Origin: a virus
Lineage: Duplodnaviria; Heunggongvirae; Uroviricota; Caudoviricetes
IMG/VR virus record: IMGVR_UViG_2541047764_000008
Strand: one strand, 5' to 3'
DNA length: 32,225 nt
Shown: positions 2,621-14,438 of the stretch, one piece after another
Numbering within the stretch: the first letter of the stretch is position 1
How the letters are laid out: each line of letters begins with the position of its first letter
Program-made: the position numbers and the translations under genes
The notes under the pieces: model-generated
The model's database searches: none
Told to the model about the DNA's origin: nothing
The model's input: only the letters and a program-made list of their open reading frames with translations

Positions 2621-3643
2621 TTAGAGTAAATTACTTAGAGGATTTAGTGTAACCGCATCCTCTAAATGCTCGGGAGAAAAGTGGGCATATCTCATCGTTT
2701 CACGAATATTAGCGTGGCCAAGAATGCGTTGCAATACAAGGATGTTCCCACCATTCATCATGAAATGAGACGCGAAGGTATGTCGTAATACGTGGGTCTT
2801 TTGCCCTTCAGCCAACTCAATAGATGTCAAAGCTAGCATCTTTTTAAAGTCTTGGTAGCAGGATTTAAACATCCTTCCTTGACGTGTGGATAGTTCGTCA
2901 TAGAGCCATTTAGGAATCGGAACAGTTCTATTCTTCTTACCTTTGGTTTTGGTGAAGGTCAGCTTGTAGGGTGAGAGTTGAGCGCGTGTAAGCCTCTCGG
3001 CTTCTCCCCATCGTGCACCGGTTGCCAAACATACCTTAACAATCATCGTAAGATTTTCTTTGCCATATTGTTCACAGGCTCGGAACAGCTCCGGGAGCTG
3101 AGACAAAGTTAGCCAGGACATTTCTTTCTCAGCTTCTTTGAATACGCGAATCCCGTCCAGTGGATTGGGTAAACTCCACTCCCCTAATCGTCGCAGTTCA
3201 TTGAACACTGCTTCGAGGTATTGCTGCTCGCGATTGACAGTTATAGGTTTGGCGATCCACTTCGCCGGGTCTTTGTGATAGCCGTTGTCTATTTCGCCAC
3301 GTAATCGACGGTCACGGTAATGAGCCCAATCTTTAGCGGTAAGACGAGATGCAATAGGGTCGCCCAACCCGTTACATACGATTTGAAGCTTTGCCAACCG
3401 CGACTTACTGGCTACTAACGCCTGACCGTGCAAATTGTGCCAAAGCTGAATAATCTCACTTAAGCGTCGGCGGTCTTCTTTCTTGCCGAGCCACGGCTTA
3501 TCTTCACTCTCGCTTTTGGTAAATGCTTCGAATGCCTCGGCCTCACCTTTGGTATTGAATTGACGACGTATACGCCGCCCTTCCCGGCCATTTGGATAAA
3601 GCTCACATAACCATTTACCATTTTTTTGCTTACTTACTGTCAT
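2621..3643 (-). CDS. int: Tyrosine integrase (P2/186 Int family)
   Basis: 340-aa ORF; the C-terminus carries the catalytic-region signature HVLRHTFASHF...LGHANIRETMRYAHF typical of tyrosine recombinases. It sits downstream of the repressor on the same strand, as in P2/186. Confidence 0.9.
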   Translation of the reverse strand: MTVSKQKNGKWLCELYPNGREGRRIRRQFNTKGEAEAFEAFTKSESEDKPWLGKKEDRRRLSEIIQLWHNLHGQALVASKSRLAKLQIVCNGLGDPIASRLTAKDWAHYRDRRLRGEIDNGYHKDPAKWIAKPITVNREQQYLEAVFNELRRLGEWSLPNPLDGIRVFKEAEKEMSWLTLSQLPELFRACEQYGKENLTMIVKVCLATGARWGEAERLTRAQLSPYKLTFTKTKGKKNRTVPIPKWLYDELSTRQGRMFKSCYQDFKKMLALTSIELAEGQKTHVLRHTFASHFMMNGGNILVLQRILGHANIRETMRYAHFSPEHLEDAVTLNPLSNLL

Positions 3644-3666: not shown

Positions 3667-4005
3667 TTATTCACACAACGCTATAGCTTCACTGAAAATC
3701 GGGCCAATATCAGCGCTTTCTAATGAATCGTTAGGGTCTTTTTTAAGAACTTCTTTTAAATCTCGCCCTTCCATTTTTCCTGATTTGACGGCGTTTTTAG
3801 CCATACCGCTTAGGGGGTATCGTTCATCCGTATCAATGTCATAAACAAAAACGTAGTGACTATTTACACAAGATACCTTTGCATGCTCAAAGGTCAGCGG
3901 CCATTTATCACCAAAAGATTTAATATCAATCTCTTTGAACTTTTCAGCGGCAAAGGTTGAGGAAGAGAGTGCAATACAGATTATTCCAAATAAAAACTTT
4001 TTCAT
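3667..4005 (-). CDS. Small secreted/periplasmic protein (moron) between repressor and integrase
   Basis: 112-aa ORF with a classical N-terminal signal peptide (MKKFLFGIICIALSSSTFA followed by AEK) and two Cys in the mature part. AT-rich relative to flanking int and cI. No family assigned. Confidence 0.55.
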   Translation of the reverse strand: MKKFLFGIICIALSSSTFAAEKFKEIDIKSFGDKWPLTFEHAKVSCVNSHYVFVYDIDTDERYPLSGMAKNAVKSGKMEGRDLKEVLKKDPNDSLESADIGPIFSEAIALCE

Positions 4006-4014
4006 TACTGCTCC

Positions 4015-4878
4015 TTAAACATGCTTTTCCAAGGTAAAGATAACTGCACCTGATGGTGTGATATCAGAGAGATTACATTCAAACTCAGCAGACTTATTTG
4101 ATAGCCTGACCTTTCCACCTGGCATTCTGATTACGTCAAAAATATCGAGCGCACCATCAATGCCAATAAGCCAACGACCATTTCCTATCTTTGAGTTAGA
4201 ACAATCAACAAGCCAAGATGCGCCAACTCCATCAATAAAGACCAACTCATCAATGTTTGCAGGAACCATTGAAAGGTCTGGAGTCCAACGCCCAATATCT
4301 TTTAACTCACCAGCTTCAAGACGACATTTTCTTACTGTTAAGGCGTTAAGTGATTCACCCTCTTTGCTGTCTCGCATTTGGCCTTTTCCTGTAGATAGCC
4401 ACTCTAACGATACGCCAGTATCGAGTGCGCAGGTCACAACCACATCGCCAGGGAAGAAGTCACGCCTAACCCAAGTGCTAATAGTACCGGAAGAAATACC
4501 TAATAAATCACCAAGCTCTTTTTGCATCGTAAAACCATAAGCATCCAGAATCCTACGCAAAACGGTTTTACCGCCGTTCGTCATAATCTCGTCATAAAGC
4601 TCTTTGCCTTTTAACTTGCAACCGACTCGCCCATGATTTGCATTTGCAAGCTCACCACTTACAAGCCAATTAATATCAGCGCCCGTGTCAAGACAACACC
4701 TAACTATGATGTTGCCAGGTATTGCATCGCGTTGAACCCAGCCGCTAACGCTATGTTTCGCGATTCCTAGCAGGTCAGCCAAATCCTTTTGCATCTTGAC
4801 GCCATAGGCTGACATTAAGCGCTCTAATACGCCATTTGACGCACCTATGCGCCACTGAACATCAAGCTCAGAACTCAT
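4015..4878 (-). CDS. cI: CI-like immunity repressor with tandemly duplicated N-terminal HTH domain
   Basis: 287-aa ORF. Residues ~17-75 and ~107-165 are an obvious internal repeat (LERLMSAYGVKMQKDLADLLGIAKHSVSGWVQRDAIPGNIIVRCCLDTGADINWLVSGE versus LRRILDAYGFTMQKELGDLLGISSGTISTWVRRDFFPGDVVVTCALDTGVSLEWLSTGK), each resembling the 186-type CI HTH module, followed by a C-terminal domain. It is divergent from the early operon. Confidence 0.7.
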   Translation of the reverse strand: MSSELDVQWRIGASNGVLERLMSAYGVKMQKDLADLLGIAKHSVSGWVQRDAIPGNIIVRCCLDTGADINWLVSGELANANHGRVGCKLKGKELYDEIMTNGGKTVLRRILDAYGFTMQKELGDLLGISSGTISTWVRRDFFPGDVVVTCALDTGVSLEWLSTGKGQMRDSKEGESLNALTVRKCRLEAGELKDIGRWTPDLSMVPANIDELVFIDGVGASWLVDCSNSKIGNGRWLIGIDGALDIFDVIRMPGGKVRLSNKSAEFECNLSDITPSGAVIFTLEKHV

Positions 4879-6898: not shown

Positions 6899-9124
6899 AT
6901 GACAAAATATACTTTTGCTTTTCCGTGGAATGCCCCACGGTCGGCAATAGTCAGTCCATATCTTACCTACGACCAACAGTATCGCCGCGACCGTATGTTC
7001 GCGGCTTTGCTGCATGCGAAAAAGGTGCTTTCTCTCCAGCCCGACTGCGTGCGGTTAGATGTTTATCGCACTGCTGCGGTGCTGGAGCAAAATCAGGGCA
7101 GTCAACGAACCAATGCCTTTTTAATCAGCTTCTGCAAAAAGGCATTGCCGCGTCTTGAACTGGTCGCAAAAAAATACGAATGCGCGGGTATCAACAGCAA
7201 TGTATCAACCGCTGTTTTTGGAGGTCATTTTGATACCCAGCTTATGCAATATCTGGCGTCTCGCATGGTTAATATGGTCGCCCGATATAACCGCCTCCCG
7301 GACATGTCGCGCGCTGATGTTGACCTGTTGGCCGCTGATATTGCTAATTTCATTCGTGGTGAACTTGCCAACATTGATGACAACGGATTCGGCGAGCTTA
7401 AAACGCTGTACACCTGGTATATCCGTGCTGGCTTTATTTCCCTCCAATTCAACGTTATCCCACCACATTGGGATCGGGTTGCAAAAAAATATGTCGGCGC
7501 GGATGAAATCGCACCGGCTATCGCCAAGATGTTTAACGATGGGTGGTGGCGTGGTCGTTTGCGCCGTGTTGCGGCTACTTGGCGCGAACACCTGCAAATT
7601 GCAGTCGGCAACGTCAGCAAGAAAAAAAACACCTACGCGAGTAAAAACTGCGTGACTGACTGGCGTGAACAAAAGCGCCGCACTCGTGAATTTCTCAAAG
7701 GTCTGGATCTCGAAGACGAAGACGGCAACCGTATCAGCCTGATTGAAAAATATGATGGCTCAGTTGCTAACCCTGCCATTCGCCGCTGTGAGCTCATGAC
7801 CCGCATTCGTGGGTTTGAAAACATCTGTAATGAGCTCGGTTATGTTGGTGAGTTTTACACTCTAACCGCGCCGTCAAAATATCACGCCACGACTAAAGCC
7901 GGGTACCGTAACAGCAAATGGAGCGGTGCTAGCCCGGCTGACACGCAAAACTATCTAACCGGTATCTGGGCGCGTATCCGTGCCAAACTGCATCGGGAAG
8001 ATGTCCGTATTTTCGGTATTCGTGTCGCCGAACCCCATCACGACGGCACTCCACACTGGCACATGCTGATGTTCATGCTGCCGGAAGATGTTGAATATGT
8101 TCGATCCATCGTCCGTAAATACGCATGGAAAGAAGACCGCCACGAACTGAAAAGCGATAAAGCCAAAAAAGCACGTTTCCACGCCGAGGCCATTGACCCG
8201 GAGAAAGGCAGCGCAACCGGCTATGTTGCTAAATACATCTCAAAAAATATCGACGGTTATGCTCTCGATGGTGAAACCGATGATGAAAGTGGTGAACTGC
8301 TGAAAGAGACAGCCCCCGCCGTTTCAGCATGGGCAGCGCGCTGGCACATCCGTCAGTTTCAGTTTATCGGTGGTGCGCCGGTGACGGTCTACCGTGAGTT
8401 GCGTCGCCTCGCTGATACCGAAACCGCGCACGGCCTGAGCGTTGAGTTTGCCGCCGTCCATGATGCCGCCGACGCAGGTGACTGGGCTGGTTATGTTAAT
8501 GCGCAGGGTGGGCCGTTTGTCCGTCGCGATGATTTACAGGTGCGTACACTGTATGAACCCCGTACCGAGCTTAATCAGTACGGTGAGGAAACGGTATGTA
8601 TTAAGGGGGTCTACGATTCCTCCATAGGTGCAGGAAGCCCGATTTTAACCAGGCTTACTCAGTGGAAGATTGTTCCGAAGCGTGCTGTTGATTTGGCCGT
8701 TGACCTTCAGGACGGCAAAGCCGTCCCTCGGAGTTCTGTCAATAACTGTACGGGAAGCGAAAGCGATCCACCGATACTGGATTTAACAAAACCACTGAGT
8801 CGGCGTGAAAGACGAGAATTGACCAACCGACTCAGGAAGCAAAAGCCAGCAGCACGGCGAAAATTCATCCACGGAACGGATGAGCAAAACGCAGCTATAG
8901 CTAAAACTATCGACGAAATACATCTGACAACCGGCATTAATATCAGCCGGGGCGAAGCCCTGCACCTGATGGCCGGTGGTAAAAGTTGTTTTGATGGTAA
9001 ATGGCTACGCGGAACGGCCAAAGGAGAAATATTTTCCGCAGCACCATCGCATGAGGCTAAAGCTCGGAAAATCCTTAATCGTGTTGCGGCGATGGCTGAA
9101 GCATCAAAACCAATACATGAGTAA
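6899..9124 (+). CDS. A: Replication initiation protein A (rolling-circle HUH endonuclease)
   Basis: 741-aa ORF with an HUH-type motif (GTPHWHMLMF) and a downstream tyrosine motif (GYVAKYISKN). Size and position match P2/186 gpA. The exact start is uncertain; 6899 is the first ATG of the ORF. Confidence 0.9.
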   Translation: MTKYTFAFPWNAPRSAIVSPYLTYDQQYRRDRMFAALLHAKKVLSLQPDCVRLDVYRTAAVLEQNQGSQRTNAFLISFCKKALPRLELVAKKYECAGINSNVSTAVFGGHFDTQLMQYLASRMVNMVARYNRLPDMSRADVDLLAADIANFIRGELANIDDNGFGELKTLYTWYIRAGFISLQFNVIPPHWDRVAKKYVGADEIAPAIAKMFNDGWWRGRLRRVAATWREHLQIAVGNVSKKKNTYASKNCVTDWREQKRRTREFLKGLDLEDEDGNRISLIEKYDGSVANPAIRRCELMTRIRGFENICNELGYVGEFYTLTAPSKYHATTKAGYRNSKWSGASPADTQNYLTGIWARIRAKLHREDVRIFGIRVAEPHHDGTPHWHMLMFMLPEDVEYVRSIVRKYAWKEDRHELKSDKAKKARFHAEAIDPEKGSATGYVAKYISKNIDGYALDGETDDESGELLKETAPAVSAWAARWHIRQFQFIGGAPVTVYRELRRLADTETAHGLSVEFAAVHDAADAGDWAGYVNAQGGPFVRRDDLQVRTLYEPRTELNQYGEETVCIKGVYDSSIGAGSPILTRLTQWKIVPKRAVDLAVDLQDGKAVPRSSVNNCTGSESDPPILDLTKPLSRRERRELTNRLRKQKPAARRKFIHGTDEQNAAIAKTIDEIHLTTGINISRGEALHLMAGGKSCFDGKWLRGTAKGEIFSAAPSHEAKARKILNRVAAMAEASKPIHE

Positions 9125-9423: not shown

Positions 9424-9657
9424 ATGAGAATCAATATCACGTTGGATAAAGAGCAAAAAATTAGTCAGGCAACGTTGGATGCACTTGAGGCTGAGCTGTA
9501 CCGCAATCTTCAACCTATTTACCCAAAGACTGCTATCCGCATTCGTAAGGGCTCAGCTAATGGCGTTGAGTTAAGCGGTTTGAAACTGGACGAAGATAAA
9601 AAACGAGTAATGGAAATCATGCAGCAGGTATGGGAGGACGATAGCTGGCTGCATTAA
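9424..9657 (+). CDS. DinI-like protein (possible C-terminal/Tum72-like part of a Tum antirepressor)
   Basis: 77-aa ORF (MRINITLDKEQ...WEDDSWLH) resembling E. coli DinI in length and in its acidic Trp-containing C-terminus. It lies downstream of the LexA-controlled promoter. Confidence 0.7.
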   Translation: MRINITLDKEQKISQATLDALEAELYRNLQPIYPKTAIRIRKGSANGVELSGLKLDEDKKRVMEIMQQVWEDDSWLH

Positions 9658-9726
9658 CAAACGCCGTCGGTGCTGAATCTTGCTTTCAGTGCTGGCGGGG
9701 TTGAAACTGGCTCCGAGAGGCGTTAG
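9658..9726 (+). repeat. Imperfect direct repeat, copy 1 (~70 bp)
   Basis: AACGCCGTCGGTGCTGAATCTTGCTTTCAGTGCTGG...GGCGTTAG; shares the first ~40 nt almost exactly with the copy at 10062-10130. Confidence 0.6.
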
Positions 9727-9850: not shown

Positions 9851-10060
9851 ATGCATCGACTACCGGGCGAAATTCCGCAGCACAAAACTAAAAGCATAAA
9901 ACTGATGGCTATCGTTCATCGCTTGCAGACGATAATGGTCAATGAGAACCTGACGCCAGCGGAATTGGTCGGGTGTGCAGAAATAGTCAGGGATAACTAC
10001 GATAAGCTGAACGATATCAGCAGGCCGACACAATATGCGCCACCACCATGTCGAAGATAG
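9851..10060 (+). CDS. Hypothetical small protein flanked by direct repeats
   Basis: 69-aa ORF with a GAGGG RBS 7 nt upstream of the ATG. No recognisable motif. Confidence 0.35.
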   Translation: MHRLPGEIPQHKTKSIKLMAIVHRLQTIMVNENLTPAELVGCAEIVRDNYDKLNDISRPTQYAPPPCRR

Positions 10061-10061
10061 C

Positions 10062-10130
10062 GAACGCCGTCGGCGCTGAAACTTGCTTTCGGTACTGGAG
10101 GGTTGAACAACGAGTCCCTCTAGGGGTTAG
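10062..10130 (+). repeat. Imperfect direct repeat, copy 2 (~70 bp)
   Basis: AACGCCGTCGGCGCTGAAACTTGCTTTCGGTACTGG...GGGGTTAG; a partner of the copy at 9658-9726. Confidence 0.6.
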
Positions 10131-10272
10131 TCTGTTCCGTAGAGATTGGCCCAAACCGGCACTATTAAAGCCGGTTTTCGTATGTCCAATCTAAAGAATG
10201 GGGGCTGACATCCCACCATCAGATTTGTGTTATTTTAGTGCTACTCATTCGTCATTAGACATTGTAAGGGCA

Positions 10273-10989
10273 ATGTATATGAAACCAAGCACACACTGCG
10301 TTTATTGCGGTGTTCTCATGAATAAGGTTGAAAATCACCCCCACTGCCGCTCAGTTGAACACATGATTCCGCAAGTTTCAGTCTCCATTCATAGAACCAA
10401 CGGCGAAGGTGATTTCTATGTATGCAAAAAGTGCAATGGCGATAAAAGCCGAATTGACGAGGTGTTAGGTGTCATTTGCCGCATGGTAGGAGAGCACTCA
10501 ACAGGCAGCTTTGATGCTGTTAATAAATTCCATAATGCGCTTAAAAGAAAAGACTCGAAATTTCGTGAAGCATTCCAGAGTGTTAGGCATACAAAAAAAG
10601 GTGCGCAGATAACATTACCCCTAAATGGTAGGGAGATTTACCAATACGGCACCTGGTTAGCCAAGGGAGTATTTTTCTTAGAGTATGGGCAATTGTTGAC
10701 TGTAGATAAATTAATTTGGATTAATATCGTTCGCCACGATGAAGTAATGGCTATTAAAGAAATGTATAGAAATGAACGTGGCTCTGAGGCATTTGATGAT
10801 TTATCGAAGAATAGCAACATTCCAAATATTAATGGCGAGTCGTTTCTGATTGTTGGCCAGGATGCCCGAGAAATGTTTATTTGCTTCAATAGAGTAATGA
10901 TGTTTCATATAAAGATACTGGATAGAACGTTTATTAATCAAAAAAAATGCAAAAAAGCCCTACTCAATCTGGAAAAAAGGGTTCGATAA
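10273..10989 (+). CDS. HNH-nuclease-domain protein with uncharacterised ~170-aa C-terminal domain (moron in the A-to-cos accessory hotspot)
   Basis: HNH motif at the N-terminus (CVYCG...HPHCRSVEHMIPQ...FYVCKKCNGDKS). AT-rich by eye and sharply different from flanking phage DNA. Start uncertain: ATG at 10273 or 10279; the track's longest form starts at 10198. Confidence 0.55.
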   Translation: MYMKPSTHCVYCGVLMNKVENHPHCRSVEHMIPQVSVSIHRTNGEGDFYVCKKCNGDKSRIDEVLGVICRMVGEHSTGSFDAVNKFHNALKRKDSKFREAFQSVRHTKKGAQITLPLNGREIYQYGTWLAKGVFFLEYGQLLTVDKLIWINIVRHDEVMAIKEMYRNERGSEAFDDLSKNSNIPNINGESFLIVGQDAREMFICFNRVMMFHIKILDRTFINQKKCKKALLNLEKRVR

Positions 10990-11012
10990 GATAAATAAGA
11001 TGTAATGAATGT

Positions 11013-11034
11013 GTGCATGCCACTGCATTTTTTT
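11013..11034 (+). terminator. Weak terminator candidate downstream of the HNH moron
   Basis: Short hairpin (TGCA/TGCA stem) followed by a T7 run (11028-11034). Confidence 0.3.
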
Positions 11035-11134
11035 GCATGCGTTGATCCAACCGCCAAAACATAAGGAGTACCGGTAGTAGCTTAGCTAAAGCGAGGTCAT
11101 GCAACTGCATTAAAACCGACCCATAAAGCGGGCA

Positions 11135-11153
11135 GGCGTGGCGGGGAAAGCAT
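11135..11153. other. cos: cos-like 19-mer (candidate cohesive-end site of the P2/186 family)
   Basis: GGCGTGGCGGGGAAAGCAT closely matches the 19-nt cohesive end I recall for P2/186 (GGCG[A/T]GGCGGGGAAAGCA[C/T]). It sits in a non-coding GC-rich stretch upstream of the portal end of the late region, as expected. Confidence 0.5.
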
Positions 11154-11357
11154 TGCGCGCCAGCGGTGGTGCGTATTATTAAAAATTATCGTCTGAGAAC
11201 GTCGTGACGGCGCTGTAGTGGCCGGGTGTGATCGTGGGCGCGTGGTGCGTCTGTGGCGTGGTGCTAAAGGATGGGATCAGTTGCACAATTTTACGGTTTC
11301 GCTTTGGCTAATATCCATATTGAGACTTTATGTTCCCCACAACAGTTGGAGGCTTTA

Positions 11358-11582
11358 ATGGATAACTATCATATTACAAAAGATGGCGATAAGTGGAAGT
11401 TGCAAAAAGAGGGCAATGACCGCCCTAGCAAGACCGCGCCCACAAAGGCCGAGCTGATTAAAACAACATCTGAGTTTATGTCGAACAAAACAGGCTCGGT
11501 CAAAATTCACAAGGAAGATGGGAAAATTCAGGAAGAACGCACTTATCAGAGAAAAGATGATCCTAAAAAGTCTAAGGGCTAA
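11358..11582 (+). CDS. Small conserved hypothetical protein (DUF2188-like)
   Basis: 74 aa from the ATG at 11358 with a GGAGG RBS 5 nt upstream. The pattern KDGDKWKL...G...IHKEDGKIQEERTY...DP resembles small DUF2188-type proteins (from memory). Confidence 0.4.
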   Translation: MDNYHITKDGDKWKLQKEGNDRPSKTAPTKAELIKTTSEFMSNKTGSVKIHKEDGKIQEERTYQRKDDPKKSKG

Positions 11583-11620: not shown

Positions 11621-12667
11621 TTATTCCGGGTTGTCGAGTGTGTACTCTTTGAACCTGATGACCTCCATACCGAGCCAGTCGTTTACCTCCCTGAACCTAT
11701 CCTGCAGGGGTGACAGCTCATTACGCACAAATACCTTTGCCACCTTCTCAACGTCACCGAGTGAACCGATATTCTCGGGCTTGCCGCCCATGAGCTGGAA
11801 CGGCACGCGGTGCGCGTCCATCAGGTCGGCGGCGCTGGCTTTCTTAATGTTGAAAAAGTCATCCTTTGTGGCGACCTCGCTCAGTGGCACGATTTTGATG
11901 CCGTCCGGTTTTCCGCCGGGGGCGTAGAAAAACAGGTTCTTAAAGTTGCCGAGCCCCTTCGAGTTACGCATCGCCTCGCGCAGCGATTCGACGTCGGTCG
12001 CACTTTGCGCCGGGTCAGTCACATACATGATGTAGCCTGCGTGCGCGCCGTTCTGATAATACTTGCGGCGGAACAGCGTCGCGGATTCATTCAGCCAAGC
12101 GGAATTAAGCGCGCTGAGATATTCCGGCAGACCGTAAATCTCCTGATTAATGTCGGGCTCCAGCAGGTGAAACACGGTATCAGGCGCGAACTCGTGCGGC
12201 TGGGTGAAGTTTTCCACAAACCAGAAAATCGAATCGTCGACTCCGCGTCGGGTGTATTTGGCTGGCGAGGCCAGCAGTTTGATTAACTGGCCGGTGACGC
12301 TGTGGCGCTGCTCAAGAAAGGCGTTACCGAACACCAGATAATCGAGCGCAAAGCGGCTGAAATCCTGACGGGATAACAACGGGTGCGGAATGTAGGTGCT
12401 CGCGAGCACGTTACGCTTAACATAAATTGGCGAGCTGTGATGCACGGCAGAGCGCAGGCTCTTTGCCAGCCCTGAGAAGCTGACCGGCGGCTCGTACCAT
12501 TTGCCGTTACTGATGCACTCGACGTAATCCAGAATGTCGCGCTTATCGAGTACCGGCACCGGCTCGCCGAAGGTGAACGCTGTCGTTTTTGGCGGTGCGC
12601 TGGCGGTCAGTTGTTGTGGTTTGCTGGCCTTTTGTGCGTTGGCTTTACGGGATTTTTGTTTACCCAT
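11621..12667 (-). CDS. Q: Portal protein (P2 gpQ-like)
   Basis: 348 aa; size, orientation and position next to cos and the terminase match P2 Q. Confidence 0.85.
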   Translation of the reverse strand: MGKQKSRKANAQKASKPQQLTASAPPKTTAFTFGEPVPVLDKRDILDYVECISNGKWYEPPVSFSGLAKSLRSAVHHSSPIYVKRNVLASTYIPHPLLSRQDFSRFALDYLVFGNAFLEQRHSVTGQLIKLLASPAKYTRRGVDDSIFWFVENFTQPHEFAPDTVFHLLEPDINQEIYGLPEYLSALNSAWLNESATLFRRKYYQNGAHAGYIMYVTDPAQSATDVESLREAMRNSKGLGNFKNLFFYAPGGKPDGIKIVPLSEVATKDDFFNIKKASAADLMDAHRVPFQLMGGKPENIGSLGDVEKVAKVFVRNELSPLQDRFREVNDWLGMEVIRFKEYTLDNPE

Positions 12668-12668
12668 T

Positions 12669-14438
12669 TTAGTTGAACTCCAGAATAGATTTAGGCTGCA
12701 TGCCGCTACCGGCAGAAAGCGGTTCGTTTAACAGGGCGTGCATGGTCGCCCATGCGATATCGGCGTGGCTGGCTTCCTCGGTGCGGCTGGCCTCATAGGT
12801 GGCGCTGCGCCCGCTGCTGGTCATGGTTTTGCGGATGGACATAAACGACTGCGTGACGTCGGTTGCTCCGGCGTCGTACTCCAGACAGCCACGGCGAATG
12901 GTGTCTTTCGCCTTGAGTACCATTGCGGTTTTCATTTCAGGTGTGTAACGGATGCCGCGTGCCGCCGGGTAAAATGAGCGCACCAGCTGGAACACGCCGA
13001 GACCGAGGCCGGTTGCGTCAATGCCGATGTATTCGACGTTGTATTTCTCGGTCAGCTTGCGGATGCCCTCTGCCTGTGCTGCAAAATCCATGCCCTTCCA
13101 CTGGTGGCGCTCCAGCATGCGGAACTTGCCACCAGAGACCACCGGCGGCGCGAGCACGACGCACCCGGCACTGTCGCCGGTGTGTGACGGGTCGTAGCCA
13201 ATCCAGACAGGACGAGAGCCGAACGGATGGTCTGCGAACGGGGCAAAGTCCTCCCATTCCTCCATCACATCGACCATGCAGCGCTGCAGCTCCTCGAACG
13301 GGAATACCGACGCTTTATCGTCGACAAACTCGCACATAAACAGGTTCTTAAAGTCCTCATCACTGTTTTCGCGTTTGAGCTGGTCGAGGTCGAACAGGGT
13401 GCAGCCACCCGCAAGGGCGTCCTCAATGGTGACAATCTGCCGCCACTGGCCATCGTCGCAGAGCTGGCCACCGGCGAGCGCGCTGTGACTGATGTCGATT
13501 TCGATGCGGTCGGCAATCCGGCTGCGCCCCTTGTTGAACAGCTCGCCAGACCAGAAGGGGTAAGCGCCGTGCGCCAGCGTGGAAGGTGTCGAAAAATAGG
13601 TCGAGCGCAGGTGCTTTTGCGAGGCCATGCCCGAGGCGACTTTGCGCAGTTTCTGAAAATTCGGGATCCAGAATATTTCATCGACATACAGATCGCCGTT
13701 ATGGCTCTGCGCGGTGTTGGAATTGGTACCGAGAAAAATCAGTTTTGCGCCGTTGTTACCGATGACAATCGGGTCGCCAGTCAGGTCAACGTCGACCAGT
13801 CGCGCAAACTGGATGATGTATTCGCGGAACACGTAAGCCTGCGTTTTACTGGCTGATAAAAATATCTGGTTATGGCCGGTTTTCAGTGCGCGCAGCAGTG
13901 CCTCGCGGGAGAAATAGAATGTCGCGCCAATCTGGCGGGATTTGAGAATGTCACGAATACGGTGCTCCAGTCCTGCGCGGTACCACTGCAGCTGGTACTC
14001 GAAAGACTGATCGAAAAATAATTCCTCTAGTTTATCGATAGCCTCGTCGCTGAAAAAATTCTTTTTCGGCTTTTTGCGCTCCCCTTTGTTGCGGTTGGCG
14101 ACGTTGGGGTTAAGGTCGGCTTCGTTGCCGGTCTGGCTGTAGCGGTTGACTCGCGCCAACCGTTCAATCTGCCGTCCGAGCAGGTCAATCTCTTTGAAAT
14201 CACCCCCTGTCTTGTGCGGCTTGGCGATGAGCTGAATCAGCCTGGCCTCAAGGCTGCTTTCAACGCGGGAAATCGGCGCGATGCCGTCCCAGCCGTCGCG
14301 CTGCTTCCAGCTCTGCACGGTCGGGCGCTTGACCTGCAGCATTTCGGCAATCTGTGGCACGGAAAAACCCTGCCAGTAAAGCAGCGATGCCTGCCGTCGC
14401 GGGTCATGCAACAAGGTTGTATCTGTGGAAATGGTCAT
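12669..14438 (-). CDS. P: Terminase large subunit (P2 gpP-like)
   Basis: 589 aa, matching P2 P in size; it is divergent from the O-N-M-L operon and starts 1 bp after the Q start region on the same strand. Confidence 0.85.
   Translation of the reverse strand: MTISTDTTLLHDPRRQASLLYWQGFSVPQIAEMLQVKRPTVQSWKQRDGWDGIAPISRVESSLEARLIQLIAKPHKTGGDFKEIDLLGRQIERLARVNRYSQTGNEADLNPNVANRNKGERKKPKKNFFSDEAIDKLEELFFDQSFEYQLQWYRAGLEHRIRDILKSRQIGATFYFSREALLRALKTGHNQIFLSASKTQAYVFREYIIQFARLVDVDLTGDPIVIGNNGAKLIFLGTNSNTAQSHNGDLYVDEIFWIPNFQKLRKVASGMASQKHLRSTYFSTPSTLAHGAYPFWSGELFNKGRSRIADRIEIDISHSALAGGQLCDDGQWRQIVTIEDALAGGCTLFDLDQLKRENSDEDFKNLFMCEFVDDKASVFPFEELQRCMVDVMEEWEDFAPFADHPFGSRPVWIGYDPSHTGDSAGCVVLAPPVVSGGKFRMLERHQWKGMDFAAQAEGIRKLTEKYNVEYIGIDATGLGLGVFQLVRSFYPAARGIRYTPEMKTAMVLKAKDTIRRGCLEYDAGATDVTQSFMSIRKTMTSSGRSATYEASRTEEASHADIAWATMHALLNEPLSAGSGMQPKSILEFN

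Follow-up and report, generated by a model that had tools for sequence, protein, structure and literature searches.

The interval between gpA and gpQ of P2-type phages is an experimentally demonstrated hotspot of anti-phage systems (Rousset et al. 2022, PMC9122126), in which tin and a DUF4238 system are precedents for exclusion by a single gene (PMC9122126). Here we analysed a window (the whole stretch of DNA under study: 32,225 nucleotides, IMG/VR record IMGVR_UViG_2541047764_000008) whose gpA-to-cos segment holds a gene for a two-domain protein, with an N-terminal zinc-finger HNH nuclease domain followed by a C-terminal domain (CTD) of ~175 aa. The same arrangement (hypothetical, DinI, hypothetical, hypothetical and DUF2188) stands in Table S5 of PMC9122126, where the HNH gene is probably WP_032143468; its label there is only ‘hypothetical’, and the systems cloned in that study do not include it. 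An 85% variant, WP_236496082.1, is listed by DefensePredictor (2026, PMC13092281, Table S10) as a ‘putative novel defense gene’ with a mean log-odds of 8.33 (strict cutoff, 4), a score that derives partly from the same contextual cues as are used here (neighbours and GC). The overall validation rate of DefensePredictor is 45%, and the units tested exclude the HNH-CTD family, ‘HNH1’ there being a different protein (PMC13092281). Since DefensePredictor already lists the family, the idea of a defence role for it is not new.

Among known families, the best-scoring for the HNH protein is PtuB of Septu and of the type I-A retrons (Ec78/Eco7). The likeness lies in: i) the HNH_5-type zinc-finger HNH; ii) the overall size of ~215-250 aa; and iii) the place among mobile defence cargo. 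On the other hand, the HNH starts at residue 5 here but at about residue 43 in PtuB, and the CTD, alpha/beta in the AlphaFold2 prediction, differs from the 64-aa three-helix C-terminal domain with which Retron-Eco7 PtuB binds PtuA (PMC12673091). Moreover, the PtuB chains of the PDB were not detected from the HNH family by sequence or by Foldseek, no PtuA ATPase adjoins the HNH gene in >20 loci, and no ATPase ORF lies between gpA (end 9124) and the portal gene (11621). The gene therefore falls outside Septu on two features, an adjacent PtuA and a PtuA-docking C-terminal domain, while sharing a third, the HNH subunit.

P2 old/tin and other gpA-gpQ cargo occupy the same slot beside cos as AT-rich exchangeable cargo, and the gene here likewise lies between gpA and gpQ, beside cos, in a variable AT-rich segment. 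However, no sequence or fold relationship between such cargo and the HNH protein was detected; Old combines an ATPase with a Toprim nuclease. HK97 gp74 and N.phiGamma resemble the protein in their [CxxC]2 zinc HNH and in the location of their genes just upstream of cos and the packaging genes. Such cos/terminase-adjacent HNH nickases are HNH-only proteins of 121-130 aa that are conserved within their group, the HK97-like siphophages (PMC3592412), whereas the HNH-CTD protein has 236 aa with a large extra domain, is rare in its own phage group and is also found outside phages. Adjacency to cos, portal and terminase is thus shared, but neither group-wide conservation nor confinement of a small HNH-only protein to phages is. 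The nearest known defence protein is the Menshen NsnC HNH endonuclease (HHblits probability 87.6; PMC13092281 Table S10), but by the classification of that table the protein is not a Menshen homologue, and because coverage is only 0.17 the match reflects the HNH motif alone. Finally, type IV (McrA-like) HNH enzymes are also stand-alone HNH nucleases without a methyltransferase, and type IV-like action is one logical route by which a lone HNH enzyme could spare host DNA; the modified-base reader domain of such enzymes, however, is not recognisable in the HNH-CTD protein.

Prophage, cos site and borders of the cassette

The window contains a 186/PSP3-type prophage with tum/DinI. The original prediction had assumed a P2 setting with the gene between A and cos: the placement holds, while the phage, with its tum/DinI, is 186/PSP3-like and not P2 itself. 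The cos cut was placed at 11134/11135, because this is where in the window the deposited PSP3 sequence stops and those of 186 and EtG begin. The HNH gene is the last before cos, with its stop codon 145 nt from the cut, but it does not stand alone in the interval as had been supposed, since a 60-aa ORF, DinI and a 69-aa ORF also lie upstream. The features of the region are:

2621-3643, minus strand: integrase
4015-4878, minus strand: CI repressor
6899-9124, plus strand: replication endonuclease gpA
9424-9657: DinI/tum, after the 60-aa ORF
9657-9726, plus strand: ~70-nt structured repeat, copy 1, directly 3' of the DinI/tum stop codon
9851-10060, plus strand: 69-aa ORF, a separate small cargo module (no PADLOC match)
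10060-10130, plus strand: ~70-nt structured repeat, copy 2, 3' of the 69-aa ORF; left border of the variable cargo
10131-11095, plus strand: HNH cassette, absent or replaced in related prophages (homology break-points against PSP3 and loci L011, L012 and L013)
10279-10989, plus strand: most probable reading frame for the HNH-CTD protein (236 aa and stop; ORF list, phrog_31193, homologue alignments, dN/dS)
10291-10464, plus strand: zinc-finger HNH (beta-beta-alpha-metal) nuclease domain, about residues 5-62 (alignment, Pfam, PADLOC PtuB)
10465-10986, plus strand: helical linker and alpha/beta C-terminal domain, about residues 63-236 (no known relative)
11096-11221: conserved cos-proximal block, which bounds the hotspot on the right (90-100% conservation in every enterobacterial locus)
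11621-12667, minus strand: portal Q
12669-14438, minus strand: terminase P

The limits of the cassette were set at 10131-11095 because the left-hand break in homology falls at the ~70-nt repeat and the right-hand one at 11096. Besides the gene, the cassette (GC 39.8%) comprises an upstream hairpin predicted by folding (10153-10177) and a 106-nt 3' tail. The ~70-nt repeat itself folds as a long hairpin (z about -3.5) and has no Rfam match; because the homology between prophages breaks immediately after it, we take it as the left border of exchangeable cassettes, and it may serve as a recombination linker or a terminator. Rfam found no known RNA in the region, and a scan of the plus strand for promoters and terminators returned nothing convincing.

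Two neighbours were considered as partners of the HNH gene and rejected. The 69-aa ORF is not a partner, because it is found without the HNH gene in L011 and is absent from L002. Between cos and the portal gene lies a DUF2188 gene (11358-11582, plus strand), which aligns along its whole length with the PADLOC candidate PDC-S16 (E 9.5e-15); its link to the HNH gene was rejected because either occurs without the other (DUF2188 in L011 without the HNH gene, and the HNH-bearing L002 without DUF2188). Elsewhere in the prophage, between integrase and CI (3667-4005, minus strand), a 112-aa protein with a signal peptide is encoded; in related prophages the gene found here is annotated with a DUF2511 domain, and in Ecol_545 it is frameshifted.

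A second cargo slot lies between the chromosomal flank (1-205, downstream of yfiB) and the prophage integrase, where two overlapping and very AT-rich genes (29-40% GC) occupy 230-2583 on the minus strand. They encode a 492-aa ATPase (Walker A GRNGVGKS; best PDB matches PtuA of Septu and of retron Ec78, E 1.3e-6) and a 292-aa HNH protein (CLLC..DHFLP..CDYCNRMKS), and from its sequence the pair looks like a Septu-like PtuA/PtuB. Bases 206-2650 had no megablast match in 5,426 complete E. coli genomes. In Ecol_545 the slot is taken by a different 270-aa gene; because this genome has the HNH gene together with other cargo there, a link between the HNH gene and the pair was rejected.

The gene and its two-domain product

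The longest ORF, at 10198-10989 on the plus strand (263 aa), is present as the original prediction gave it. Translation likely starts at M28 (10279), yielding 236 aa, because: i) phrog_31193 (236 positions, no function assigned) matches residues 28-263 end to end (E 9e-172); ii) M28 is where nearly all homologues begin in the alignments; and iii) the DNA homology of the Klebsiella copy to the window runs from 10277 on. Another possible start is M26 (ATG at 10273), which would give 238 aa. RefSeq/PGAP instead starts at M41 (10318), a 223-aa product from which the first zinc-finger CxxC is lost; the entries concerned are WP_223849042 and WP_236496082, and the DefensePredictor table entry carries over the shortened 223-aa form. 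This shortening may be partly behind the bare ‘hypothetical’ label of the protein.

Judged from its sequence, the ORF is a real gene under strong purifying selection, because dN/dS is 0.09 against the E. coli variant of 85% identity and the catalytic residues are invariant down to 23% identity. The claimed AT-richness was confirmed: at 39.0% GC the 711-nt gene ranks at or near the bottom among segments of its size in the prophage, which as a whole has 53.5%.

An alignment of 28 members, with identity down to 23%, defined the HNH signature of the family as CxxC...EH...CxxCN..K...D. Invariant in all 28 are C7, Y9, C10, N19, E27, H28, R39, C52, N53, K56, D60 and G130, with C49 nearly so, and the HNH domain is catalytically intact as far as conserved residues can tell. 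The motifs CVYCG, EH and CKKCNGDK that had been read from the sequence were all found in the ORF product, but HPHC shows no conservation in the family, the zinc ligands being C7, C10, C49 and C52 (236-aa numbering). Pfam HNH_5 and HNH were detected in 15 and 11 of the 28 members respectively, while the window protein itself matched no Pfam or NCBIfam profile. The PADLOC PtuB profile matched 19/28 members (E down to 1e-8); its match to the window protein is weak (E 7e-5) and covers the HNH region only (residues 5-65), as does its match to the first family member. No other PADLOC defence-system profile matched the window protein and no system was called.

The CTD is marked by a Y123..K129-G130 (AKGxYF) motif and a basic terminal helix. 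An AlphaFold2 model built with the family alignment was confident and compact (pLDDT 82.7, pTM 0.84): in this prediction the HNH unit is followed by three helices and then by an alpha/beta domain, on whose central helix Y123..K129-G130 is located. Foldseek gave no significant match to the model in the PDB (best E 0.097) or in BFVD (best E 3.7e-3, an uncharacterised myovirus protein, TM 0.33), and sequence searches of the PDB with two family profiles and a distant member returned chance matches only, PtuB not among them. The C-terminal region had been described as devoid of recognisable motifs, and indeed it has no profile or structural relative in Pfam, NCBIfam, the PDB or BFVD and no recognisable reader or sensor fold, the modified-base reader domain included. 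A profile search of the family likewise found no NUMOD, IENR1 or AP2-type DNA-binding module.

The family is small. A word-indexed search of 5.8 billion proteins yielded 28 clusters, Enterobacteriaceae throughout; when 1.84 billion representatives were searched exhaustively with a profile, no more than 84 proteins reached E <= 0.001. Full-length relatives have 213-251 aa and all share the two-domain layout, HNH and CTD always occurring together. Stand-alone reuse of the CTD was considered and rejected, since the ‘CTD-only’ matches of the exhaustive search were N-terminally truncated fragments or chimeras. No characterisation of the HNH-CTD family turned up in literature searches, whether by accession number, by PHROG id or under single-gene HNH defence.

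Distribution and genomic settings

The HNH gene is present in 7/5,426 complete E. coli genomes, and in the same number of the 197 E. coli genomes that carry related prophages (identified by related flanks). The remainder of the 197 hold other cargo at the site (a SIR2 protein, acyltransferases or sets of hypotheticals), and a PD-T4-6-like kinase and PDC-S25 are also among the cargo of related prophages there; the locus is thus variable, as had been anticipated. Ecol_545 carries a 99.9%-identical copy. Phages 186, PSP3, SEN1 and SW9 are without the gene, and among 50,697 deposited phage genomes a homologue was found in one, Klebsiella phage Kp4852-2.

The enterobacterial clade (45-100% identity) comprises copies from E. 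coli, Klebsiella, Kosakonia and IMG/VR contigs; without exception the gene lies between gpA/DinI and cos of a P2/186-like prophage. The distance from the HNH stop codon to the cos block is ~100-160 nt in 12 of 13 enterobacterial phage loci, and this holds down to a protein identity of 45%. Some of these loci have additional cargo beside the gene: a PD-T4-6-like Ser/Thr kinase and two further genes in a sister phage, and PDC-S25 (a SIR2/STALD protein) in Kosakonia. In Klebsiella-type prophages (L005, at 7175-7906, and also L018, L019 and L023) the gene directly upstream always encodes a 243-aa protein with no Pfam or PADLOC match; it is not an obligatory partner, because it is missing from the E. 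coli and Kosakonia loci, and it may be lineage-specific co-cargo. L003 (8001-12005; contig of Logan SRR32277962) is a decayed P2-like remnant with an HNH gene of 45% identity, in which the cos-proximal block lies 158 nt downstream of the gene and the portal is reduced to a 131-aa fragment, so that the HNH gene has outlasted its phage. In L003 two inserted genes separate the cos block from the portal fragment, and one of them weakly resembles an Argonaute-associated REase.

The distant (marine) clade, with 23-35% identity to the window protein, is found in settings unlike the P2-like hotspot: i) as cargo of a Tn7-like (TnsABCDE) transposon, the contig also encoding an Eco57I-like methylase and BrxR at a distance of a few kb; ii) adjoining HigBA and a NACHT protein; iii) in a Photobacterium chromosomal island; iv) in a Binatia MAG, 1.8 kb from a class II pAgo with a Cas4-like nuclease; and v) on three Shewanella plasmids, one copy being 0.9 kb from an AAA ATPase and Dsr1. 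Between marine copies that are 67-89% identical in DNA, homology is gone 20-60 nt outside the ORF, and an all-against-all BLAST of the neighbours found nothing common between the contexts except phage backbone. The mobile unit is therefore the gene alone, because the flanks are unrelated past 20-60 nt and no neighbour protein is shared; the proposed horizontal acquisition fits such a single-gene unit, which has no conserved partner.

Possible roles: exclusion, homing and packaging

The best explanation, to which we assign a probability of about 55%, is a self-contained nuclease for phage exclusion, carried as exchangeable cargo of the cos-proximal hotspot of 186/P2-type prophages, where it would guard the lysogen against other phages. 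It is favoured because the residues are intact, selection is purifying, the gene is solitary cargo of defence-bearing elements and the slot is a phage-excluding one; the evidence from neighbourhood is guilt by association without a formal control. The context (a variable locus, a mobile single gene and no match to a characterised non-defence family) supports the exclusion or abortive-infection nuclease that the original prediction had put forward, and no evident homing target was found.

Under this explanation, the HNH domain would cut nucleic acid, either invading phage DNA or, as with PtuB, host tRNA; an RNA target is conceivable because Septu is reported to act on tRNA-Tyr (PMC13096335). 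The CTD would supply target specificity or trigger sensing, a role that PtuA, a methyltransferase or an antitoxin has elsewhere, and would keep the enzyme harmless to the host. Host safety would have to come from the protein itself, because no methylase, antitoxin or ATPase accompanies it, and two routes can be envisaged: i) substrate specificity, e.g., for modified or otherwise phage-specific DNA; and ii) activation of the nuclease by a phage trigger. Type IV-like attack on phage DNA and trigger-activated abortive infection appear about equally likely. Against a defence role speak the lack of a PADLOC system call, the CTD with no reader or sensor fold that could be recognised, and the conserved ~100-160 nt spacing to cos, which a pure ‘random cargo’ model does not predict and which would fit a cos-related or homing role.

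Homing, the alternative named at the outset, would make the protein a selfish free-standing HNH homing-type endonuclease that cuts gene-less P2/186-like genomes near the hotspot, whereupon repair copies the gene in by recombination via the ~70-nt repeat (left) and the cos block (right), exclusion of rivals being a by-product. Such an enzyme would account for the sporadic distribution (7/197 related prophages), for the conserved sequences that flank the cassette and for an adjacency to the cos block kept through divergence to 45% aa identity; moreover, free-standing homing enzymes consist of an N-terminal nuclease with a C-terminal DNA-binding domain, and the CTD here is potentially DNA-binding. 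However, where flanks are conserved, in the enterobacterial prophages, gene-less relatives show other cargo and not an empty site; and where copies are 67-89% identical in DNA, in the marine clade, they sit in unrelated flanks (the Tn7-like transposon, chromosomal islands and plasmids) and not in the homologous insertion sites expected of homing. The homology in that clade stops with the ORF, so that the copies share no target site. The lack of NUMOD, IENR1 or AP2-type modules and the single homologue among the deposited phage genomes also count against homing. We consider it unlikely, the kept cos spacing being the part of the alternative that holds up, with no evident target and the unrelated marine flanks against it. 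In keeping with homing, gene conversion has also been proposed for the cos-adjacent HNH nickases (Xu & Gupta, PMC3592412).

The spacing would likewise be explained if the gene were a cos-linked weapon among P2-type helpers, their siblings and P4-type satellites with a common cos region. Incoming cos-bearing rivals would be cut near the hotspot, and would thereby be excluded and have the gene transferred into them; the CTD would be the DNA-recognition module, and action on such rivals would be why the gene has stayed ~100-160 nt from cos. In a variant to which we give the same weight, the CTD would be a new trigger sensor that lets a PtuB-type HNH work without an ATPase. We think this reading, in either form, rather improbable.

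More doubtful again is a packaging-associated HNH nickase as in HK97-like phages, which would aid cos cleavage by the terminase or relieve torsional stress. The order HNH, cos, portal, terminase is that of HK97 gp74 and N.phiGamma, the [CxxC]2 zinc HNH is common to the cos-adjacent nickases (PMC3592412), and the spacing to cos is tight and conserved. On the other hand, the gene is missing from ~190/197 related E. coli prophages and from 186 and PSP3, a nuclease domain (Terminase_6C) is already part of the P2-type large terminase, and family members without a terminase in the vicinity are found on plasmids, in islands and on the Tn7-like transposon. Homing and packaging are both weakened yet alive, because the genes of enterobacterial phages stay ~100-160 nt from the cos block.

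Least probable of all is an orphan Septu-type effector served by a remote PtuA-like ATPase, e.g., from the pair at 230-2583: PtuB is the nearest defence profile and a PtuA-like ATPase does lie 8 kb away, but that ATPase is already paired with an overlapping HNH gene of its own, the attL-int slot of Ecol_545 holds other cargo while the HNH gene there is near-identical, none of the family members has a conserved ATPase in its neighbourhood, and the three-helix PtuA-binding domain of Retron-Eco7 PtuB is missing here.

The HNH gene is thus most likely a putative anti-phage gene and not a new kind of system, and the general picture is unchanged, since the P2 cos-proximal hotspot is a place where nuclease genes not seen before are to be expected. 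It offers a concrete and easily cloned case for a published machine-learning prediction. If the exclusion role is confirmed, a compact one-gene nuclease family of ~0.7 kb would join the anti-phage genes, together with a new protein domain, one able to control or direct an HNH nuclease that has no ATPase, methylase or antitoxin as partner. Such a domain would help to explain how hosts survive beside stand-alone nucleases, and small HNH modules are of use as parts for engineering.
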